Assembly: GCA_010093605.1 (NCBI GenBank)
Contig: MU004182.1
Coordinates: 1,149,032 to 1,213,031, forward strand
DNA from: Lophium mytilinum
Lineage: Eukaryota
DNA: 64,000 nt
Reading direction: 5' to 3'
The notes below the pieces were generated by a model. That model was given only the letters and a program-made list of their open reading frames with translations, searched no databases and was not told where the DNA came from. Positions 10,701 through 21,257 of this stretch are shown piece after piece. A program made the position numbers and the translations under genes. How positions within the stretch are numbered: position 1 is the first letter of the stretch; the number at the start of each line of letters is the position of its first letter.

Positions 10701-12146
10701 CTATTCCGAGAACCAAGGATGTTTAAGTAGATCCACCGCTGAAGGCCGCTTCGCCGGGTCATATTGCAAAATCTGCCTCACTAGGGAGCACACGACTGCC
10801 GTCTCCTCATCACCAATTTCGTCCGGCTTATTCTTGGCAAACAGCACTTCAAGAGAATCATGTATGTGAGGAGGTTCTCCCTCCCCGTATGGCGCTAGGG
10901 GCTCGTGGTTTGGCCCATACCATATGCTAGCGCGCGGCCAAGCGGCCATGATAGAGTCGGGCAGTGGCTGAATAATGTCGTTAAGCTGGGTAAGATGGTC
11001 ATCGTCTGCATCATCTTGCTCTTCCTGCTCTTTCGAAAGCATCATAACCGCGAATAGTGACCTACCCGTTAGAAACTCAAACACCAGGCATCCAAAGCTC
11101 CAAATGTCGATGCCGGAACCAAATGGCTGGTGTAGAATCAACTCTGGAGCGCGGAGGCCGATAGGCGTCACCGTGTCGCTTGGCGGGTCAGCTAACCAGA
11201 AAGCTGTGGGCATGCCGTTAGAATACGATCTTTTCATGTTTCGTAGTATCAAGAGCAATTTACCTGCACCTAGATCCGAGAGCTTCACGTGAAGATTTGG
11301 GCCGCTTTCCACGTGATCGTAGAGCGGCTGTTTGAGATAGAGAATCTTCGGTGCCCATCTGTCGTCCTTCTCATCGATCCTGTGTACGGGTATCGCGGTG
11401 CTGGCCTCGTCCTGCTTGAGCTCACCTTCTTCTAGAGACTTGATGTCTTTTATAGAGAAGAGTAGATTGCCTGGTTGGACGTCACCGTGTACCACGCTAA
11501 TTTCATGCAGGAAGGCAAGGCCGCGCAGTGCATGGAGAAGTATCTGTTTAGCCATCCATTTAGGATACCTCTGCCGCTTTCCCTTCATGGCTGGTTTATT
11601 CTCCGGCAGTTCTTCCACTAGTGAGGCAGCGGTTGCGCCCATAGGCTCGAACACCAAGCACTGATGCTTGCCGTTAGGGCCTTGATGCTGAAAGATGTCC
11701 AGCAGCACGGTGACGTGTTGGGCGTTGGGGTGGGCGGGAGCCGCTTTCTCGAGATGGTCGAGAATCTTAAGCTCCGTATCCGTTGTGGAGGCTTTAGCAA
11801 CCATTATCTTAAGAGCGACATACCGCGGTGTGCTATGGTGGCGGTCCTTGTCAACGATAGGACGCGAAATACAAGCAGAACAAAAGAAAAAAGAGAATTA
11901 AGGATAGGGAGAAGAATAAACGTACCTCGTGCTAACGGCTAGCCATACAGTCGAGAATGAACCGTCTCCGAGCTTCCTGATTACCCTATACTTGCCGGCA
12001 CAGAAGGAATCTCCAAGAGAAACCGGGTGAAAGCCCCCAGGCCGATAGAGCTCTACCCACTCGCAACAGGCACTCGTTTTCTTGAATCTCCAAGACTGGC
12101 GACCTGGAGGGAGCTCGACCGGGGGGGTCACGGGAGGAGAGGGCAT
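10701..12146 (-). CDS. SRPK/Sky1-like Ser/Thr protein kinase (fungal expanded clade)
   Basis: ELYRPGGFHPV, KLGDGSFSTVWLA, GPNGKHQCLVFEPMG, HGDVQPGN, LSDLG, LRAPE, DIWSFGC, LLKHPWF. Two canonical introns. Confidence 0.9.
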
Positions 12147-12341
12147 CGCGATAGCAGTAAAAGACGCGGAAGAAGGAAGAAACCGCTGCGATCAAGTCGA
12201 AAGAGGCCAGTGACGGTTGACGTACACAGGACTACGCGGAAGAGCAATGACGGCTTATCACGCTCTTCAGCACTCTTACTCAGTACCATAAACAAGGTAT
12301 AAAGATGTCTAGAGAAGGATGGAGGTATTATTCGGGCGTTA

Positions 12342-12800
12342 ATTCATGGCTTGCATCAACCTTATGTTAGGGTACAATCATTATGATAGGTGGCGAAAGC
12401 ACATAGTAATAAGAAGGACGCGTCCAGGCCTAGTACTTAAAGAAATGTAGCTGGATGTCTAGAAGGAAGCAAGGGAGGGCAGGGCATCTAATTTGTGGCT
12501 ACTTATGCTACTTGGGCATGTAAAACTCTATACAAGGTATTTTAGGCATTGGCAAGTACCACTTCTAACTCACCTGCATGTAGTGTACTATGCAACGATA
12601 TGAAGCCCACAGTAATTGACAAGTACGTTCAAACAGCTATGGTACTGCTAATGAAAGTCCCGAGGACTCTCTCTACGGCCTTTCGCTGTCAGAAGTCAGG
12701 AAGTCTGCCTGAAGCAGCGGTGGCTGAGGCAGTGCTTCAGCCTTCCAACATAAAGCACTCACCATGCCTCCTCCCCACCTGAAATCCTTCTACTTCATCT
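12342..12800. repeat. Degenerate repeat copy A'; internally palindromic
   Basis: Collinear with 9990..10394. Internal inverted pairs TAGAAGGA/TCCTTCTA and CATTGGCAAGTACCA (12547-12561)/TGGTACTGCTAATG (12640-12653). Confidence 0.75.
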
Positions 12801-12863
12801 ACCCTTTGAACTTCCCAATGACCCTTTAGCCTTGAGCATCTCGGTCATACATCATCTTTGGAC

Positions 12864-15036
12864 ATGCGGTATTGGAGTACCTGGAGCGAAGTACTTTCAT
12901 GCCTCGCTCACCACCGCAGGTTCCTACCGTCAAGTTTCAATCTCAGCTCTTCTATAAAGCATCGCGTTCGGCAAATTAGCCATGACACGTCAGGGTCAAG
13001 ACCGCGGTATATCGGCTATGCGACGATTGCAGGCGTTGTTGGCACATCTTTCATTGTGAGCGTTGCTACCGTCAGCCTCTCCATCCATCGCACCAACACG
13101 AATAGGCAAAAATTAGCCACGGCGACTGAAGAACAGTGGCCAGTCCATGGGCACATAAAGTCTAGCACCGGGTCCAATTTGGCGTCATCTGGAATAACAA
13201 GATCTGACGGAAGCATCCCCTTTACCTACGATCAGCTGCGCCGGGAGGAGAAGACACGCCTCCTGGTTCTCGAAGCCGGAGAGCCAGAGGATGAACTGAG
13301 GTGTAGGCTGAACCATGTCTCTACTCTTCAGGACTCGCAATACGAGGCATTGTCATACGCGTGGGGCGAGCCTTCGACGACACATTCAATCTACACTCCG
13401 GAAGGTAGTGTTCTGATCACCGCCAGCCTATTTGGAGCCTTGCGTAGGCTGAGACTACCTGATCGGGCTCGAGTCATCTGGGCTGATCAACTATGTATAA
13501 ACCAAGAGGACGAAATTGAGAGAGGACATCAAGTGCAATTCATGAGAGAGATTTACGAAAACGCGACCCAGGTGATCATTTGGCTTGGAGAGGAATCATC
13601 TGTTGATCAGCGCGCCTTTCAATCTCTGGAGATCATCGAAAACAGTCTCGGACTGCCCTACCCGACGCCGGCTACTGGCATGGGCTGGAGAAGACAAAAG
13701 AGTAAGGCTTTGTCTGGAGGTACCATAATGGGGCCGCTCGCCAACGTCGATTCTGATCAACTAGCCAATCTGCTTCGGAGGCAGTGGTTCCGTCGTACAT
13801 GGATAGTCCAAGAAGTTGCAAGCACGAAGAAGGCCACCGTTATGTATGGGTCACAGATAGAAGCCATGGGAAGAGTTCGCAGATGTTTTCATGCGGCTCC
13901 AAACCTTGCCTGTGGACATAGGTTATGTGGAAGACGCCGATATCGTGAATTCCAGGAACAAAATCGCTGCTATCGAAACTGCTAGAAGATCCCGCAACGG
14001 ACCTTTGCACATGCCTCTTTTCCAGATGCTACTAGCCACCTCATACAATCAATGCTCCGATCCCAGAGACAAGGTATACGCTATCCTTGGATTGGGAAAA
14101 GACTGGGACCGGAATCAAGATATGAACCCAGATTACACCGTTGGAATGGGGGAGGTCTACAAGAGATTCGCAATTTGGGACAGCAAGCGAAACGCAAATC
14201 TACGTGTGTTGTCATGTGCGTCGGGCCCAAAAGAGGACGGAGAATCGAGGATGCCTTCGTGGACACCGGATTGGACTAACATTGAAAACGAATCTCCATT
14301 CGTTCGGTATAGCGATCGCACGGGATTTGCAGCTTCGGGCAAGATGTTAGCAATGGCCTGGCATTCACACGATGGCAACACTCTTCATGCTGAAGGGAAG
14401 CTGGTTGATACTGTTCGGGAGCTTGGTTCATTGCCCACTTTCACCCCAGCTACTGGAGTCTTTGAGATAAACCAAGAGAGCATATCGCGATTGCAAAAGT
14501 CAAAGAAGTGGCTTCAGGATTGTCAAAGACTTGCAGAATCTGTCAATGGCCCTTTGAGCAACGACGAGTACAACGCTTTCGCGCGAACCATGACTTGCAG
14601 CCTGACTGGCGATGCCTTCCCCGCTCCAAGTACCTACTCAGCATACTTCAAAGAGTATATGAGGTTCATGGATACCACGCCAGAGAAATACGCTGAATAC
14701 TACAAAGAGTTTGTGTCATCACCGAAACGGTTAATGGGGGCCGATGAGAGAAATCCTTACTTCAGAGGCCATACATTTATCGAATCTTCCCTACAACAAT
14801 GGACGTCGAAACGCCGGCTCTGCACCACCGAAAATAGACGATTGGCAGTGGTACCAAAGTCAGCAAGAGCTGGAGACGCAATCTGTGTTTTGTACGGTGG
14901 CGAAGTTCCCTACGTTCTCCGGCCTGCTCCCGATGGCTTCTATTTCGTTGTTGGAGAGTGCTATGTAGATGATATGATGCATGGCAAAGCTCTTTCAGTC
15001 CAAGGTCTTCGACCCACACGATTTCGGCTGCGGTAA
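12864..15036 (+). pseudogene. HET-domain (het-6-like) gene with one frameshift; pseudogene or sequence error
   Basis: HET motifs YEALSYAWG, WADQLCINQ, QVQFMREIY, WLG and WFRRTWIVQE are in one frame. CSDPRDKVYAILG, MPSWTPDW and VPYVLRP...VGECYVDDMMHG are in the next frame. The frame shifts by +1 at 13854-13860. Confidence 0.85.
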
Positions 15037-15426
15037 TCATGAAAGAATGAACTAGAGTCAGAGCATATACATTCTTTTTAGTACTCATCAACGCACCAAA
15101 AATTCTACTCGTGATCCTAGTTTCGCAAGCATGGAGAGAAAAGAACTTGAGGAACCAGTCCACCCATGCGAAGTCGACAGAGCCCCTTCTTGATGGCGAT
15201 GGCAGAGGAAGATAGGCCTGTCGTTGAGTAAACCGAGTTCCGTGTGCTGCAACCGTCCAAGAGCTCCCTCCACGAACCACAGCGTTGGCTCCTGTCCCCA
15301 GCCCTGCGGTGTTCTTCTACTCATGCTTCCCACCACGGAATGACATCGCAATGAGCCTCGAGGCCGTGCAGACCTTCGGTGCATGATACAGAGCGATCAT
15401 GAAGAGCGAAGCGAAGATCGTTATCA

Positions 15427-17718
15427 CTAAGTAAGTTGAAACGTCTCCAAAGGAACGCCGCGCGCCTTCAAAACCTCAGGCAGCATTCTAGGGTCCGAAT
15501 TCATCTCTTCGCCAGTGATCTTGTTCCGGAATGCTCCGAAGGTTTCGGGATCGCTGCGTACTCTATTTCTTCTTACCGGCTCCCATCCTTCAGGCAGAGG
15601 ACCCAGCCGGGGATCTTCAGACATTGGTATAGTCTGCGCTGTAATGGAGTTGAAGAGGTGATAGGTTGTTCCACCGGCGTTATCGGTTGCAACCTGTACG
15701 ATCCAAGGCTCGGGCAGCGGTCCAAGGAGCGCATTTGCGTCAGCTAAGCCATGGACGTAGCCACACCCAACAACCAGAAATCTTCCAGCTAAGGTCGGAC
15801 GTAAAAACATCGGAGAGTTGCACCCAAGAAAGACGCAGACAAGATCCTCTATCCAAACAGTTAGACTTAATTTCCAAGAGCCTGATATGATGGTTTTTAC
15901 CAGGCTTTGCTAATGTAGGACCCAGTCCAATATAACCTTCTTTTGTCGTTATGAAAGTGCGACCTGCGACATGTCCCATTATGCTTTTCAACTGAACATC
16001 AATCGCGTGTTCAACTTCCGCCCTACCTCCAGGACGAATAATATTGTTAAGTACGAAATTTTTCCACTCCTGAGTCTTTGGCTTGGCACTTATACTCGGC
16101 CACCGTTCTATAACCTCATTGTCGAGGAGCACTAATGCAAACGCAGTCTCTAAGCTCTCTCCTGTGATATATCGAGATGGAAGCGTCATCGCCTTTACTG
16201 CCCATGTCCGAACATCATCCGGTACGTCTTTACTCCACCACGAGGTTGGCTCGGTGGCAGTCTCGACAGTGGCACAACGAACTCCTAGCACCTCTAGCAT
16301 ATTTGGACGCTCGTACCGAAAATATGCACGAGATATCCCGCTGGAAATATGTTCACCAACGGCTGATATCCTTTCTTCTGCCGACGACCAGCTTGGAACC
16401 CAGGACGGAGCGTCGGCAATAGCAGTATTCATATCACAATACTGGAGCAGTTCCACTCGAGAATCATGATTCGAAGACGTAAGGAACGCGTCTTTGTAAA
16501 CCGTACCAACTGTGGCTGAGTAATCGGGTTCGATCTTTGCTAAGCTATTCGAGGCCGTAAGGCCTAGCAATCCGTAGATATAATCTCTGGGATTAGAACA
16601 CAACTGGTACATCATTGTACGAAGTAAGCGACCAAGCGAGAAATCTAATATTGGTCCAATAAGTCCTCCAAGAACGGACAGCAGTACACGAAGCTGAGGA
16701 GAAGGATAATCGCCTTTCACCGACATGCACCGCACCGCCCGACTTAAACGGGACCACAAGATTGTGTCATGTCCGCTCTGCACGAGCGCATGCTTATTGG
16801 CAAGATGAGCTTCCTGCCAGACCCATACACGGGAGAACCAAGAGCGTGTTAGTAGCTCTTGTACGGCCAGCCAAGTCCGGTCATCGTACGGTAAGACACA
16901 GTCCGGGTCATACCAGTCAGGTTCTTTGGCTGTGGGAGATCTCATTGCGCAGCTGTCCTTGGTAAATTCTACCTGAGCTGCGATGTAATCCAGTGTGTTG
17001 ATTGCCAATTTGCTGTTGTCTGCCTCTGGTCCAAGCCAGATGATAACGCGTTCAGCTGACTTGTATATGTTCGCCATACGCTTGACCTGCTCGTTGCGTT
17101 CATTCTCGTCACCTTGATACGGTGGTCTATTAGCATGGAAAGTGCAACAATTTAAATCTGAAAACACGTACCTTGATTTATGACCACAGCATCTACCCAT
17201 AGCATCCGAGATTTGTCGCAATATCGCAGGTACCTCAACGCGACGGAAAGATTTCGCGTAACCGGTAATAGCGATACGGCCTGGGATACAGCAGCGACAA
17301 CATAAGCGTTCTCTGGATTCTCTGCTGAACCCCAAGTATAGGATAAAGCTTCGTATCGCGGCTGATACTCGGTATATGGCATTTCTGGTGGTCGAGCATA
17401 GCGGGATCGCTCGATATTAGGCACTGGGTGCTCCCAAAAGTTCTGGCCTCTGCTGCCGAAGATATAATCTCCTTCAACGGTCTCAGAGACCCCCCATCCA
17501 GGCGGTAAGGTCTCCCTCACCTCTCTCAAAGACATTCTCTCCACTGGGCGCTCCTTAGGAACTACTAGGGGAGCATGACAGAGCTCGAACCGAATTGGAT
17601 CCTCAAATCTTCCCGGCAGGAGCTTTATGAGCCTGATCTCCTCGGTCTCTCGGTCCAGCGGGGCATATTGATAAGGCGCCGCTGCGGAGGGTATCGAGGC
17701 CTTTGATCCAGATTCCAT
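15427..17718 (-). CDS. HET-domain protein with three WW-like modules
   Basis: EIRLIKLLPG, YEALSYTWG, WVDAVVINQ, QVKRMANIY, WFSRVWVWQE, PRDYIYGLLG, PSWVPSW, VVGCGYVHGL. Introns 17113..17171 and 15849..15900. WW-like segments LPPGW...WEHP, GPLPEPW...EDPR and GPLPEGW...SDPR. Confidence 0.9.
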
Positions 17719-17955
17719 GGAAGACACTTTCGAACACTCAAGTGGGAGATGACTTTCTCCAAGAGGTAAGGCGATACCTTGCGAGTTTAGGGAGAACCGA
17801 ATGGAGAGACGAAGGAACTTGCAGCGGACGTGGATTCTGCCATTGTAGAATGTGTAGCGAGGCTGTGAATAAGCAAGGCAACGGTGCCAAGAACGACGTG
17901 CATTTGTAGTATGCATTGAATCCTTAGCGCATATCTCCTATCATGGACACTACGC

Positions 17956-18069
17956 CCACCTATTTATCACAACAGACCTAATCTTGCCTTAACCTTTGTA
18001 CCGGAGATAGCTTACAGAATACCTACTCTGTACCGTTAATCCTTAGGTTAGAATAATAATAGAGGGTGG
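17956..18069. repeat. Degenerate palindrome
   Basis: Nested pairs CCACC/GGTGG, ACCTAA/TTAGGT, TTAAC/GTTAA and TACAGAATA/TACTCTGTA around 18015-18022. Confidence 0.55.
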
Positions 18070-18115
18070 ACTTATCTAGAGACAAACATAGCATAAGAAT
18101 TTGCCTAGCAATGGA

Positions 18116-18290
18116 CCTGCTCCCGACGGTTTCTATTATGTTGTTGGAGAGTGCTCTGTGAATAATATCATGCACGGCAAAGCTCTTTCAGTTCAAGGTC
18201 TTCGAACCACACGATTTCGGCTGCGGTAATCTTGTAGGAGGTAGAGATGAGCCAGTCACAGCATATACATTCCTTTCAATACTCATCAAC
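18116..18290 (+). pseudogene. Orphan diverged copy of the last 38 codons and 3' UTR of the HET gene at 12864..15036
   Basis: 18116..18229 aligns without gaps to 14923..15036 (102/114 nt identical, including TAA) and translates PAPDGFYYVVGECSVNNIMHGKALSVQGLRTTRFRLR*. The 3' UTR block AGCATATACATTC...TACTCATCAAC is also shared. Confidence 0.92.
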
Positions 18291-18499
18291 ATCACCACCT
18301 AGTCATCATGACCACCCTTCAACATCAGTTCATCATCCTTCACAAAAAGTGAAACAAACTACACCCATACGCCCTCAACCTCGCACCCTTCAACTTCCCC
18401 AACGCCTCCATAAAAACGCCCCAAACACCCGTCCCTCCTCTATCAAACCATCCCCTCAACACCCTTACGCACTCTCATCATCCCAATCAAAGGGGCCTA

Positions 18500-18918
18500 T
18501 CAACTCCTAGAAGAAATCCAAACCAACATCCCAACCCCATACACGACCCACACCGCACAAAACGCCCCACCAATCCAGCGGCCGCGCCGCTCGAGCGCCT
18601 TCTTCGCCGCCTCCGCCGCTTCCTCCTCTTCCACCGTCAGAGCCGGCTCCACCCCTAGTCCGGGATTCGCTTGCTGCCACGCGCGGAACGCGAGGAAGTG
18701 CTGCCACTCACGCTGCCGGGTTGCCTCGTCCATGACCTCGAGGGGCTGCGTGGGGGTGGGAGGCGCGGCCGCCTCGTCGGGACCGTGGTAGGGAGGGGGA
18801 GCAAGGGCGGCGGTGTCATCATCGTCGGCGGCGGCGAGAGGGTGGTATTTTGTGGTTTGGGACTGCTTGCGGCGTTAGGATGTGGGGGGGACTGGAGGTT
18901 GGAAGCGCGACTTACCAT
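18500..18918 (-). CDS. Small C-terminally anchored membrane protein with a PPPY motif
   Basis: The first coding exon is ATG only, followed by intron GTAAGT...CTAAC...AAGCAG (18863..18915). Spliced product MSQTTKYHPLAAADDDDTAALAPPPYHGPDE...WIGGAFCAVWVVYGVGMLVWISSRS. Confidence 0.7.
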
Positions 18919-19091
18919 TTTAATGGTGTTAAGGTAGGACTTGGCAGGATGATGTGTGAGGTTGGAGAGGGGAAGGTTGGTCGAGTTTGCTTTATGGTGA
19001 GGTTATTGCAGTGGAGTGAGTGGGTAGGCGGCCTTAAAGGATGATGCGGCGCTCTCCGGTGTTACAAGGCTGTATTCTGGAGGAAAAAACA

Positions 19092-19124
19092 GCCTGGCAC
19101 GCCTGGCACGCCTGGCACGCCTGG
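19092..19124. repeat. 9-bp tandem repeat (GCCTGGCAC)x3 plus a partial copy
   Basis: Read directly from the sequence. Confidence 0.9.
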
Positions 19125-19982
19125 GCGGCACAGCCTGGTTGGCATTCTAGGATGGAGATCTTCAGACGCAGGGGCGAGCACCCCTTTCCAAACATGGAGG
19201 GAAGCATGTGGAAGTAGCATAGATGTGCGTAGAACAGGTGAAGGTGGGAAGCAGCTTGTCTTTTTTTATGACGTTGGTATTTTTTTTGTTTAAATATGCT
19301 CGCGATAGACGAAGCCCTGCTATCAATCTGGTGTGAGCGTACCGTGCAACTATCACGTTGAAAGCTCCCTTATTTTCCTCCACAACATACCAAAACGGTT
19401 CCTCTATGAAAGTGTAAGGAACCGTGAAAAAAAGTTCAGAAGGGTATCTCTGCCCGCGAAAGCAAATAGGACGGCGAGTGAGCTTTATTGTGCGTTGGAC
19501 GCTACGGCTAGGGGAATTTTCTCTTGTTGTTTCAATTTCTGTTTCACCATCATCTGCTTTTTGAATTCCGAGCCAGACTACCCTAATTAGGTGGATCCAA
19601 TAGAACCCAGAAAGATTTTGGGCACGCCTAGTCTCTTCAAGCAGGCATGCTGCAAATTCATCCACGCTTTTCCTCCGATGCAAACGAACATCACCTTCTG
19701 TGCAAGCAAATCGAGACTGAAAGGGATGACCACGGGTGTTGGGGGTCGGGGGAATAAACAAAGGAAATCGCTGAAATCAGGAGTGAAAAGGAATCTTGAT
19801 CTCGCAGCAGATGTAAACACAATCGCTCGCAATGCTGGGGGAACATGACCACGCTATGACGCTTCATACATGGATTTTTTTTGATACAAGAGAGGATTCG
19901 GAGATCTTCGGTCGGGAGGTTACTCGTGGTACGAGAGATCGCCGTTAATCTGTGCGACTATGCCTAGCTATGATGGCTTTGG

Positions 19983-21257
19983 CTACTGTACATGGTGGAT
20001 GTATTGGTTTTGGTAGTACTGTGGCTGAACGTGTTGCGCGTTCGAGACCGGAGTCGGTGTGGTAGGGTAAACCCTTGGGATGAGTCCAGCACATTTGCCG
20101 CCATCAAATTGATCGTTCTCAGGTGTGACCGGCGGAGTCAATACACCATGGTTGACAATAGCAGATCCATAGTGATGTTTCTGTGGGGTCTGGGGGCCGA
20201 TGTATACGTCTGTCGTCGGCTTTGGCTCTTCGCAATGCACGCTTGCTGGGGGCGTTGGTGGAGCATTGGCACGCCTCGCAATCTGTGCTTGTCGTTGCAA
20301 GAACTCATCCACAGTAAGAGATACCTGTGAGAGCGGAGCAATAGAGTACTTTCGGGATAGGACCTGCGATGGTTGGTACAGGTGGTTAGACAAGTTGAGA
20401 ACGGTCGATGGGTCGTAGGCGCCAGCCCAGTCCGAACTCTTCGATTGATTGCGAGACAGGATGCACCTAGCAAGGGCGAGTGAGGACCGTGCGAGGACAG
20501 ACGGGCGTGTTGAGACAAATTCCTTGTGGAATAGCGCAATCTCGGCAATATAGAGAGTCATATGTTCCACCTCTGGATCGTGCTCAACTTCGGACAGCGC
20601 AAGTTGCAGGAACGAGTCGACTGTAGGATGTCCGATGATCCAATTGAGAGTCTGAAGCACGTGCCATTCCATCTGGGTGAACATCTCATCATCATACAGG
20701 GAGCAGCACATTGACTTGAGCTCTCGGACGGTGGGTACACGGTCTTTCCGGTCTCCGTACTTGGCAGCGATGAGCAGGGCTGCGCAGCCCACAAGCTGAT
20801 AGTGTCGCTTGTAGACAACGCGTCTGGAGCAGTACCGGTCGAGTAGATTTACGGCGAGGAAGAGAGTCTCTGGGAGCAGTTGGAAAGCTGCATGTGCCTC
20901 TACCAGGAAGTCGAGAAGGTAAGGACGCATGAACCACTGGATCTCGGTCTGAATGTCGATAGAGTTGACATCAGGTAGTGTTTGTCCCTGATAAGACGTT
21001 AGCAAGATGATTTACATGAAGGGGGAATGGTGGTGTTGACTGACCTCCATGTGTTCCATGTGATCCAGGATGTCCTCTTGATATTCCTCTCTTGTCATCC
21101 TGGAAAGATCTTCTTGAATGACTCGCTGCTGCATCTTGGCAATGCTGCGAGCCCGTTCTCTCTCCGCCGCGCGCTGTACGTAGAGACCTTCATCCGGGCA
21201 GTCCACGAAGAAGCTGTCGCATTGTCCGTACCTGGACGGGTACCGTTGGTAGGCCAT
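19983..21257 (-). CDS. G1/S cyclin (fungal Cln/Puc1-type)
   Basis: Cyclin box QWFMRPYLLDFLVEAH...LFLAVNLLDRYCSRR...LVGCAALLIAAKY...MEWHVLQTLNW; TP/PEST-rich tail. Intron 20988..21044. Confidence 0.93.

Follow-up and report, generated by a model that had tools for sequence, protein, structure and literature searches.

HET-domain genes in populations of Neurospora crassa are gained and lost, with local rearrangements, in an otherwise conserved gene order (Zhao et al. 2015, PMC4540973). Between old haplogroups at these loci, homologous stretches diverge by about 0.25 per bp. The hetB locus of Aspergillus fumigatus has idiomorphic alleles: alternative haplotypes that occupy one locus with unrelated gene content (Auxier et al. 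2024, PMC11138114).

A pair of HET-domain genes in Lophium mytilinum invites comparison with both systems. One of the two, here called the HET-WW gene, lies between the 3' end of its neighbour, HET1, and a second, diverged copy of that 3' end, the orphan. At silent sites the two tails differ about as much as the old Neurospora haplogroups do (PMC4540973). The unrelated gene content of hetB haplotypes, for its part, is what one reading of the orphan needs: versions of the locus with and without the HET-WW gene. There are also differences. At least 25 isolates and functional tests stand behind the Neurospora loci, whereas here there is one genome, and polymorphism is not shown; the portions of that report drawn on here describe no bracketing tail duplicate (PMC4540973). 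No second haplotype is known for the Lophium locus, and the corresponding portions of the hetB report mention no gene-fragment relics (PMC11138114).

All positions below refer to the window, the whole 64-kb stretch of DNA that was analysed. (L. mytilinum belongs to the Dothideomycetes.) The main features are these:

12864..15036, plus strand: HET1, with a HET domain and about 720 codons (669 aa in public model P0017); source of the tail that was duplicated
14923..15036, plus strand: coding portion of copy A, comprising the final 37 codons and TAA of HET1
15037..15099, plus strand: the repeat unit's 3' UTR portion in copy A; its right end is the end of homology
15427..17718, minus strand: the HET-WW gene (P0095, 726 aa), intact; exons 17718-17172, 17112-15901 and 15848-15427
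17956..18069, no strand: claimed palindrome, unconfirmed; ordinary DNA upstream of the HET-WW gene
18116..18229, plus strand: coding-derived portion of the orphan (copy B), 37 codons and TAA
18230..18299, plus strand: UTR-derived portion of the orphan (copy B), drawn from the repeat alignment and the homology limits

The original prediction described a match between 14923-15036 and 18116-18229, and this stands: 102 of 114 nt are identical, without an indel, across the last 37 codons and the stop, and both copies end in the same TAA. It also described a duplicated 3' UTR. The match does continue for about 65 nt past the stop, but this part is more decayed than had been implied (46 of 63 aligned columns identical, with 9 gap columns). 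The repeat comprises two blocks, 14923-15046 with 18116-18239 (124 nt, 88%) and 15056-15092 with 18254-18290 (37 nt, 89%), with a net offset of 5 nt between them. Its limits are sharp: homology ends at about 14921/18114 on the left and 15099/18299 on the right, and the flanks beyond score like their shuffles (12.5 versus 12.5 ± 1.8, and 12.0 versus 11.9 ± 1.5). A search left of the orphan for duplicated downstream DNA was negative.

The tail repeat is a genuine rearrangement scar and no product of misassembly. By blastn, 14923-15092 matches 18116-18290 with an E value of 2.8e-48, the region's sole strong self-match in the window; the runner-up ungapped 114-mer reaches only 50/114 on the plus strand and 49/114 on the minus strand. 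Logan contigs from two runs, X1 and X2 (word depth about 160), each cover 12400-19000 in a single piece and agree with it throughout, without a difference or a gap. (A run search with 11001-21000 returned these two runs alone, both from one sample, the probable source of the assembly; only one isolate is public.) No third tail copy at 85% likeness or above is present in the isolate's read-derived contigs. The palindrome predicted at 17956-18069 did not materialise: 17900-18130 contains no inverted repeat (seed 6, minimum length 10), and the DNA fold of 17945-18080, at -7.5 kcal/mol, is typical of its shuffles (-8.69 ± 2.34; z = +0.51), 136 of 200 of which fold as well or better.

The bracketed block consists of a single compact, intact gene, preceded by about 395 bp and followed by about 330 bp. 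Once spliced, it translates to exactly P0095, and Pfam HET is found there with an E value of 1.6e-31. An intact HET gene thus sits where it had been predicted, but the WW part of its label is without profile support: the WW profile (Pfam PF00397, gathering score 26.9 bits) has no hit in P0095 even at E <= 1. Two relatives score 10.5 bits (P0096, E 0.68) and 10.0 bits (P0097, an L. mytilinum paralog, E 0.92), and a distant relative, P0129, carries a precomputed PF00397 hit. By eye, P0095 contains WW-like strings: LPPGW...W..P near the amino terminus, and two LGPLPExW...DPR units at the carboxyl terminus. Judged from these sub-threshold motifs, the protein may be called WW-like at most. The HET gene is the block's sole coding content; no transposase-like domain was found in it, nor any inverted repeat of at least 20 nt pairing the ends of 15100-18115. 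Base composition is uniform across the block.

HET1 itself is less orderly. Two further features concern it:

13844..13955, plus strand: 112-nt "intron" of the public model, GT..AG, whose removal takes out about 37 conserved codons and brings the gene back into frame
13857..13866, plus strand: +1 frameshift, one extra base in a conserved stretch directly after the HET domain

The reading of HET1 is split between two open frames, with an overlap at about 13860. The amino-terminal ORF contains Pfam HET (PF06985; E 6.2e-31, 108 bits against a gathering cut-off of 22.5), as does P0017 (E 1.9e-30); P0017 matches the carboxyl-terminal ORF (391 aa) at 100% identity. As a whole, the gene lines up collinearly with 13 full-length homologs (686-782 aa). 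In tblastn comparisons with five homologs, frame +3 ends at 13856 in all five, and in four of them frame +1 resumes at 13867, three homolog residues on; the fifth, P0001, aligns in frame +1 from 13810, overlapping, and through a stop. The letters at 13857-13866 are identical in the read-derived contigs at about 160x. HET1 thus carries a +1 frameshift in the sequenced strain, masked by the public model and newly described here. The model's intron, which yields the junction of ...KKATVM with NKIAAIE, is doubtful: 13844-13955 contains no CTRAY branch site, and it aligns in frame with homologs. It probably is an annotation device, one that probably hides a pseudogene.

Known relatives of HET1 are distant. 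Its best hits are Helotiales-like (53-54%), compared with 46% for the Dothideomycete Lepidopterella. (A horizontal origin of HET1 was considered from these hits and no claim is made.) A quick FastTree analysis of the carboxyl-terminal region places HET1 as a lone branch outside every named clade, with a chosen outgroup that is not monophyletic. Public protein collections hold no protein at 54%-100% identity to the parent's carboxyl-terminal 391 aa. A metagenome scan with the same ORF matched 16 stretches, one of which was confirmed: L001, on a contig of 1.3 kb, with 38% identity across 61 aa and of no use for synteny. The original prediction had called for a full-length gene bearing the orphan 3' end, and for isolates with another arrangement; on the first count, public proteins include no orphan-like tail, which tells against that prediction, though only weakly with one L. 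mytilinum isolate sampled. The best match of the 37-aa orphan has 58% identity and lies in a 75-aa protein. A phmmer search with the orphan against 1.84 billion representatives returned four hits; the parent is absent from them, so the collection's clustering at 50% may be concealing other near matches. Among known tails, HET1 and the orphan share ...GKALSVQGLR.TRFRLR, versus ...GESLSxDx-xxxEFxLR in the 13 full-length homologs. The two tails therefore are mutually nearest relatives, and the source of the orphan is the same gene lineage rather than a distant paralog.

How the orphan has changed bears on its history. Five codons of the 37-codon tail differ silently, as predicted, but amino-acid changes number six (F8Y, Y14S, D16N, D17N, M18I, and P31T) rather than two; the conservative pair alone had been given. 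Nei-Gojobori counts (Sd 6, Nd 6) give a dS of 0.245 and a dN of 0.077. The earlier proposal that the orphan diverged inside a functional gene relies on a bias toward silent changes, and this bias is not significant (dN/dS 0.31; Fisher p 0.076 versus neutrality). A ratio of 0.31 is compatible with the value of about 0.5 expected for a constrained parent and a free orphan lineage. As a pairwise figure over 37 codons, it bears no signal of balancing selection. Both copies have changed: at a site where I is found in 63 of 69 homologs and retained in the orphan, the parent has M. In the GEC[Y] motif, by contrast, it is the orphan that departs: Y is present in 66 of 69 homologs and S in none, and the orphan's Y-to-S change looks like unconstrained decay. 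Indels tell a different story, with none in the 114 coding-derived bases versus 9 gap columns in the UTR part of about 60 nt, a weak hint that the orphan may have been constrained for part of its history. The 12 coding-part differences comprise eight transitions and four transversions. (RIP of the duplicate was considered and rejected: those four are transversions, and only two of the eight transitions lie in a CpA/TpG context, as read by eye from the codons.) Nothing about the orphan's surroundings resembles a gene: an in-frame TAG lies eight codons upstream, similarity to HET1 is absent upstream of 18113, and no ORF of at least 60 aa covers the orphan in its frame. It probably is a functionless relic.

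The most likely origin of this relic, at a rough probability of 45%, is one local copy-and-paste rearrangement that made it in place. The orphan would be a 5'-truncated copy, of about 180 bp, of HET1's last 37 codons, stop, and about 65 nt of 3' UTR. We infer two possible routes: a short templated insertion that placed the HET1 tail in the spacer 5' of the HET-WW gene; or insertion of a single-gene HET-WW unit, with duplication of its target. Either would leave one intact gene between direct repeats. Thereafter the relic would have changed freely through ordinary point mutation, with selection still acting on the parent until recent times; today the parent has a frameshift of its own. In favour of an in-place relic are the bounded repeat, the mutually nearest tails, the absence of a third copy and of ORF context, the Y-to-S change at a near-invariant site, a dN/dS compatible with 0.5, the ordinary mutation spectrum, and the one compact gene bracketed.

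Partial-duplicate pseudogene fragments, such as templated insertions at repaired breaks, usually are noticed when young. The orphan resembles them in being short, 5'-truncated, and non-coding, in repeating nearby DNA in direct orientation between arbitrary ends, and in decaying by point mutation. Unlike them, it is about 10-17% diverged, and it brackets exactly one gene of the same superfamily. This divergence is a difficulty for an in-place origin. If the copies started identical, a dS of 0.245 implies a very old event, and none of the observations points to an old arrangement. The indel-free coding part, set against the UTR gap columns, likewise hints at past constraint on the orphan. For the target-duplication route, moreover, we know of no usual mechanism that duplicates a target of 180 bp. 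Two conventional sources of repeats or fragments were rejected. A transposon target-site duplication lacks terminal inverted repeats and a mobility gene, and the duplication is about 180 bp; a retro-copied pseudogene fragment lacks an A run after 18299, where the sequence continues CCTAGTCATCATGACC...

A somewhat less probable origin, and still a serious contender, is a scar between two long-diverged versions of the locus (or paralogs): one with HET1 followed by the HET-WW gene, the other with only a HET1-type gene. One illegitimate crossover would have joined them, breaking the first version 5' of the HET-WW gene and the second at codon 355 of its HET gene, the tail of which was left as the orphan. 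Decayed gene pieces at the borders of haplotype blocks may offer a parallel: in Leotiomycetes such as Botrytis, truncated, decayed gene pieces from the alternative haplotype lie at mating-type idiomorph borders, although that is a different kind of locus in a different fungal class. The absence of indels from the coding-derived part, set against the 9 gap columns of the UTR part, the dN/dS below 1, and the family-typical I retained by the orphan all fit; duplicated downstream DNA is neither required nor seen. The dS of 0.245 matches the 0.251 per bp between ancient Neurospora het-e haplogroups, and Neurospora HET loci show both presence/absence and rearrangements amid conserved surroundings (PMC4540973). 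Weighing on the other side are the non-significant selection signal, the orphan's serine at a nearly invariant site, and the lack, in public proteins with one isolate sampled, of an orphan-type tail or of any protein in the 54%-100% identity range to the parent. This origin also needs a prior presence/absence polymorphism plus a rare crossover. Because only one isolate is public and database proteins include no orphan-like tail, in-situ duplication and a haplotype-recombination scar are not separable. The fuller claim, that the orphan marks a breakpoint between ancient haplotypes of a real allorecognition locus, making the interval between the kinase gene (10701-12191) and the cyclin gene (19983-21011) a candidate het locus with the fossil of a lost allele, is slightly less probable still.

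Much less likely is Campbell-type integration, in which circular DNA carrying the HET-WW gene and a diverged donor HET tail recombined by a single crossover with the resident tail to leave two hybrid tails. One event would account for the arbitrary repeat ends, the differing copies, and exactly one bracketed gene. Yet there is no evidence of such circles here, and base composition is even across the block. Moreover, the nearest relatives of P0095 are in the same order (Mytilinidion, 51%; its own paralog, 50%), so nothing marks the gene as incoming.

The orphan is still less likely to be a working element, either part of the HET-WW leader with antisense pairing to the HET1 mRNA tail or a piece of a promoter or terminator. 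Its position, about 400 bp before the HET-WW start codon and downstream of the next gene on the minus strand, would suit such a role, and it has perfect runs of 23, 17, and 16 nt in common with the parent tail. It has no ORF and no predicted structure, however, and its decay looks unconstrained, the invariant codon included. Finally, a chance match or assembly artefact is hardly conceivable, given the blastn E value, the distance to the next best match, and read-derived contigs that cross both copies without a difference.

At present, the locus amounts to a minor rearrangement scar beside two HET genes that evolve fast. What it offers in practice is a corrected public HET1 gene model (a frameshift and a doubtful intron) and a neighbour whose "WW" label is unsupported by profile. 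To our knowledge, no het locus has been characterised so far in the Dothideomycetes. Should the orphan represent a lost allele in fossil form, it would mark a candidate allorecognition locus in this group, and such relics would provide a cheap, single-genome marker of haplotype turnover at HET loci.

The last 37 codons and stop of HET1, a plus-strand HET gene, recur beyond a second, minus-strand HET gene as an orphan copy, which under every reading except that of a working element is a dead relic (probability about 0.9). The features concerned are as follows.

12864-15036, plus strand, HET1, parent of the duplicated tail (public model P0017, 669 aa)
14923-15099, plus strand, copy A, the HET1 tail: coding 14923-15036, 3' UTR 15037-15099
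15427-17718, minus strand, HET-WW, exons 17718-17172, 17112-15901 and 15848-15427, with a translation exactly equal to P0095 (726 aa)
18116-18299, copy B, the orphan: coding-derived 18116-18229, UTR-derived 18230-18299
14923-15046 against 18116-18239, repeat block 1, 88% identical over 124 nt
15056-15092 against 18254-18290, repeat block 2, 89% identical over 37 nt, offset by 5 nt relative to block 1
18500-19002, minus strand, directly right of the orphan, a small set of proline-rich ORFs

The direct repeat of the original prediction was recovered: 102 of 114 nt are identical, with zero indels, and TAA closes both copies. It is the sole strong self-match of the region in the window (blastn E 2.8e-48); the runner-up ungapped 114-mer match anywhere in the window reaches 50/114. 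Stop codon and 3' UTR are both duplicated, as had been noted, but in the UTR-derived part only 46 of 63 aligned columns are identical, with 9 gap columns. Both tails end GKALSVQGLR.TRFRLR, an ending missing from 13 aligned homologs; the orphan thus shares its gene lineage with the neighboring HET1. The homology has sharp edges, near 14921/18114 (left) and near 15099/18299 (right), and beyond them the flanks align at shuffle level; the comparison of the orphan's two sides shows that its left side holds no copy of the downstream DNA.

Flank comparisons (lenient local alignments, 300 shuffles each): score; shuffle mean; shuffles scoring at least as high
Downstream of copy A against downstream of copy B: 12.5; 12.5 +/- 1.8; 148/300
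Upstream of copy A against upstream of copy B: 12.0; 11.9 +/- 1.5; 144/300
Left of orphan against right of orphan: 11.5; 11.2 +/- 1.5; 117/300

The palindrome claimed at 17956-18069 did not hold up: that stretch contains no inverted repeat with a 6-nt seed, and its DNA fold is no better than those of shuffled sequences (z = +0.51; an equal or better fold was reached by 136 of 200 shuffles). A 7-nt inverted match (AAATTCT/AGAATTT, with CCTAG beside each) was seen by eye at the ends of the bracketed block, 15094-15120 and 18088-18115; it falls under the repeat finder's threshold and is about what chance allows.

Codon comparison upheld the predicted count of five silent differences. The two conservative replacements are present, but the total is six: F8Y, Y14S, D16N, D17N, M18I, and P31T, from copy A to orphan. 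By the Nei-Gojobori method, 6 synonymous changes fall on 28.7 sites and 6 non-synonymous changes on 82.3 sites (dS 0.245, dN 0.077). The ratio of 0.31 leans toward the constrained divergence that had been proposed, but it does not depart significantly from neutrality (Fisher p 0.076), and the split also agrees with a ratio of 0.5, expected for a constrained parent and a free orphan. The coding-derived 114 nt have no indel, but the UTR part, roughly 60 nt long, has 9 gap columns; this contrast is a hint of past constraint on the orphan, though its estimated likelihood ratio is no more than 2-5. The differences comprise 8 transitions and 4 transversions, the result of ordinary mutation rather than RIP.

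Replacements were polarized against 69 of 93 family members, the other 24, in whose last 50 residues the motif regular expression was unmatched, being excluded. At Y14S the orphan carries S, where 66 of the 69 have Y and none S; at M18I the parent carries M, whereas the orphan retains the I of 63 members. For D16N, where 41 members have D and 7 have N, the derived state is probably the orphan's; D17N is ambiguous, as 47 members have G, 12 have D and 7 have N; and F8Y and P31T are uninformative because both sites vary among the 13 aligned homologs. Change has thus affected both tails, and at least one of the orphan's changes looks unconstrained.

How did the orphan arise? Simple tandem duplication is rejected: the bracketed block would then be doubled, and it is unique. 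An origin in place has close to an even chance. Either the tail would have served as template for a short insert upstream of HET-WW, or the HET-WW unit would have been inserted with a long target duplication. Both begin with identical copies, so that a silent divergence of 0.245, accumulated through ordinary mutation without RIP, would imply great age. An illegitimate crossover between diverged haplotypes, with and without HET-WW, is a somewhat less probable but serious alternative; here the divergence would predate the event. This is the concrete form of the original prediction that the orphan may be the remnant of a displaced allele or paralog. Tail dS (0.245) resembles the divergence of 0.251/bp given for ancient Neurospora het-e haplogroups in a study that also describes presence/absence of HET loci with local rearrangements (PMC4540973), and idiomorphic het alleles are described in Aspergillus fumigatus (PMC11138114). 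Integration through a single crossover of a circle carrying HET-WW and a diverged tail, which likewise brings its divergence with it, is unlikely. From sequence alone these four routes are not separable.

That the orphan is a working element is more improbable still. It has an in-frame TAG 8 codons upstream, and no ORF of at least 60 aa covers it in its HET1-derived frame; it thus lacks ORF context. An artefactual repeat deserves next to no credence: in Logan assemblies of two runs (word depth about 160; probably the same sample as the genome, so not independent biological support), 12400-19000 lies in single contigs with zero differences and zero gaps, and no further read-derived contig matches either tail at 85% likeness or above.

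Between the repeats lies a single compact gene, flanked by about 395 bp on its upstream side and about 330 bp on its downstream side. This gene, HET-WW, is intact. P0095 has a HET domain (E 1.6e-31) but no match to the WW profile even at E <= 1; P0096 and P0097, its relatives, reach no more than 10 bits, where the cut-off is 26.9. WW-like strings are visible by eye, and the label can go no further than 'WW-like'. The nearest relatives of HET-WW belong to the same order: a Mytilinidion resinicola protein (51%) and another L. mytilinum gene, located on a different contig (50%). Part of the HET-WW 3' end, at 15440-15529 and 16149-16172, has an 83%-alike counterpart on a further read-derived contig of about 14 kb, which is probably the locus of the paralog P0097.

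Classic ligands of WW domains are PPxY motifs. The proline-rich ORF set, whose neighbor HET-WW has the WW-like strings, includes a PPPY motif (…LAPPPYHGPDE…), is hydrophobic toward its C-terminus (…GGAFCAVWVVYGVGMLVWISS), and gave nothing significant in Pfam. GC skew swings from -0.48 (18250-18749) to +0.41 (18750-19249), with GC up to 0.63, a pattern consistent with a C-rich leader or spacer and then minus-strand proline-rich coding sequence; across the HET pair, base composition is even.

The surroundings are ordinary and gene-dense. A protein kinase gene and a cyclin gene flank the pair; farther out lie WD40, transglutaminase-like, hydrolase, PAP2, Arf, TLDc, and N-myristoyltransferase genes. 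No transposon-type domain was found in 21 long ORFs scanned in the window.

HET1 itself provided an unexpected by-product. Its overlapping ORFs, 12864-13865 and 13861-15033, are collinear with 13 full-length homologs (686-782 aa). In tblastn, the frame +3 alignment stops at 13856 for all five homologs tried, and frame +1 resumes at 13867, three homolog residues on, in four; with the exception, P0001, it begins at 13810 and runs through a stop. Ten bases at 13857-13866 where nine are expected imply a +1 frameshift in a conserved stretch; read-derived contigs agree on these letters. P0017, a named L. mytilinum protein 100% identical to the C-terminal ORF, jumps from ...KKATVM to NKIAAIE..., implying a 112-nt intron (13844-13955) that would excise about 37 codons aligning well with the family. 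This interval contains no CTRAY branch site; both HET-WW introns, on inspection, do. HET1 is frameshifted, and the public model probably hides it. With no other stops over about 725 codons, HET1 appears to have been disabled recently and, in this strain, is probably a young pseudogene.

Protein searches found no full-length protein with the orphan tail, only one isolate of the species being sequenced; against 1.84 billion representatives, the 37-aa orphan had 4 matches, the best at 58% identity in a 75-aa protein. Besides P0017, the parent's C-terminal 391 aa match at best at 53-54% identity (16 matches among longer proteins, 78 among near-length ones). The best HET1 matches are mostly Helotiales-like or soil sequences; L. 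mytilinum belongs to the Dothideomycetes (Mytilinidiales), and the Dothideomycete Lepidopterella reaches only 46%. HET1 forms a lone branch in a quick tree, an isolation that may reflect birth-and-death turnover or old transfer. The orphan beside it is a gene-fragment relic, of a kind already known, at a fast-turnover HET locus.
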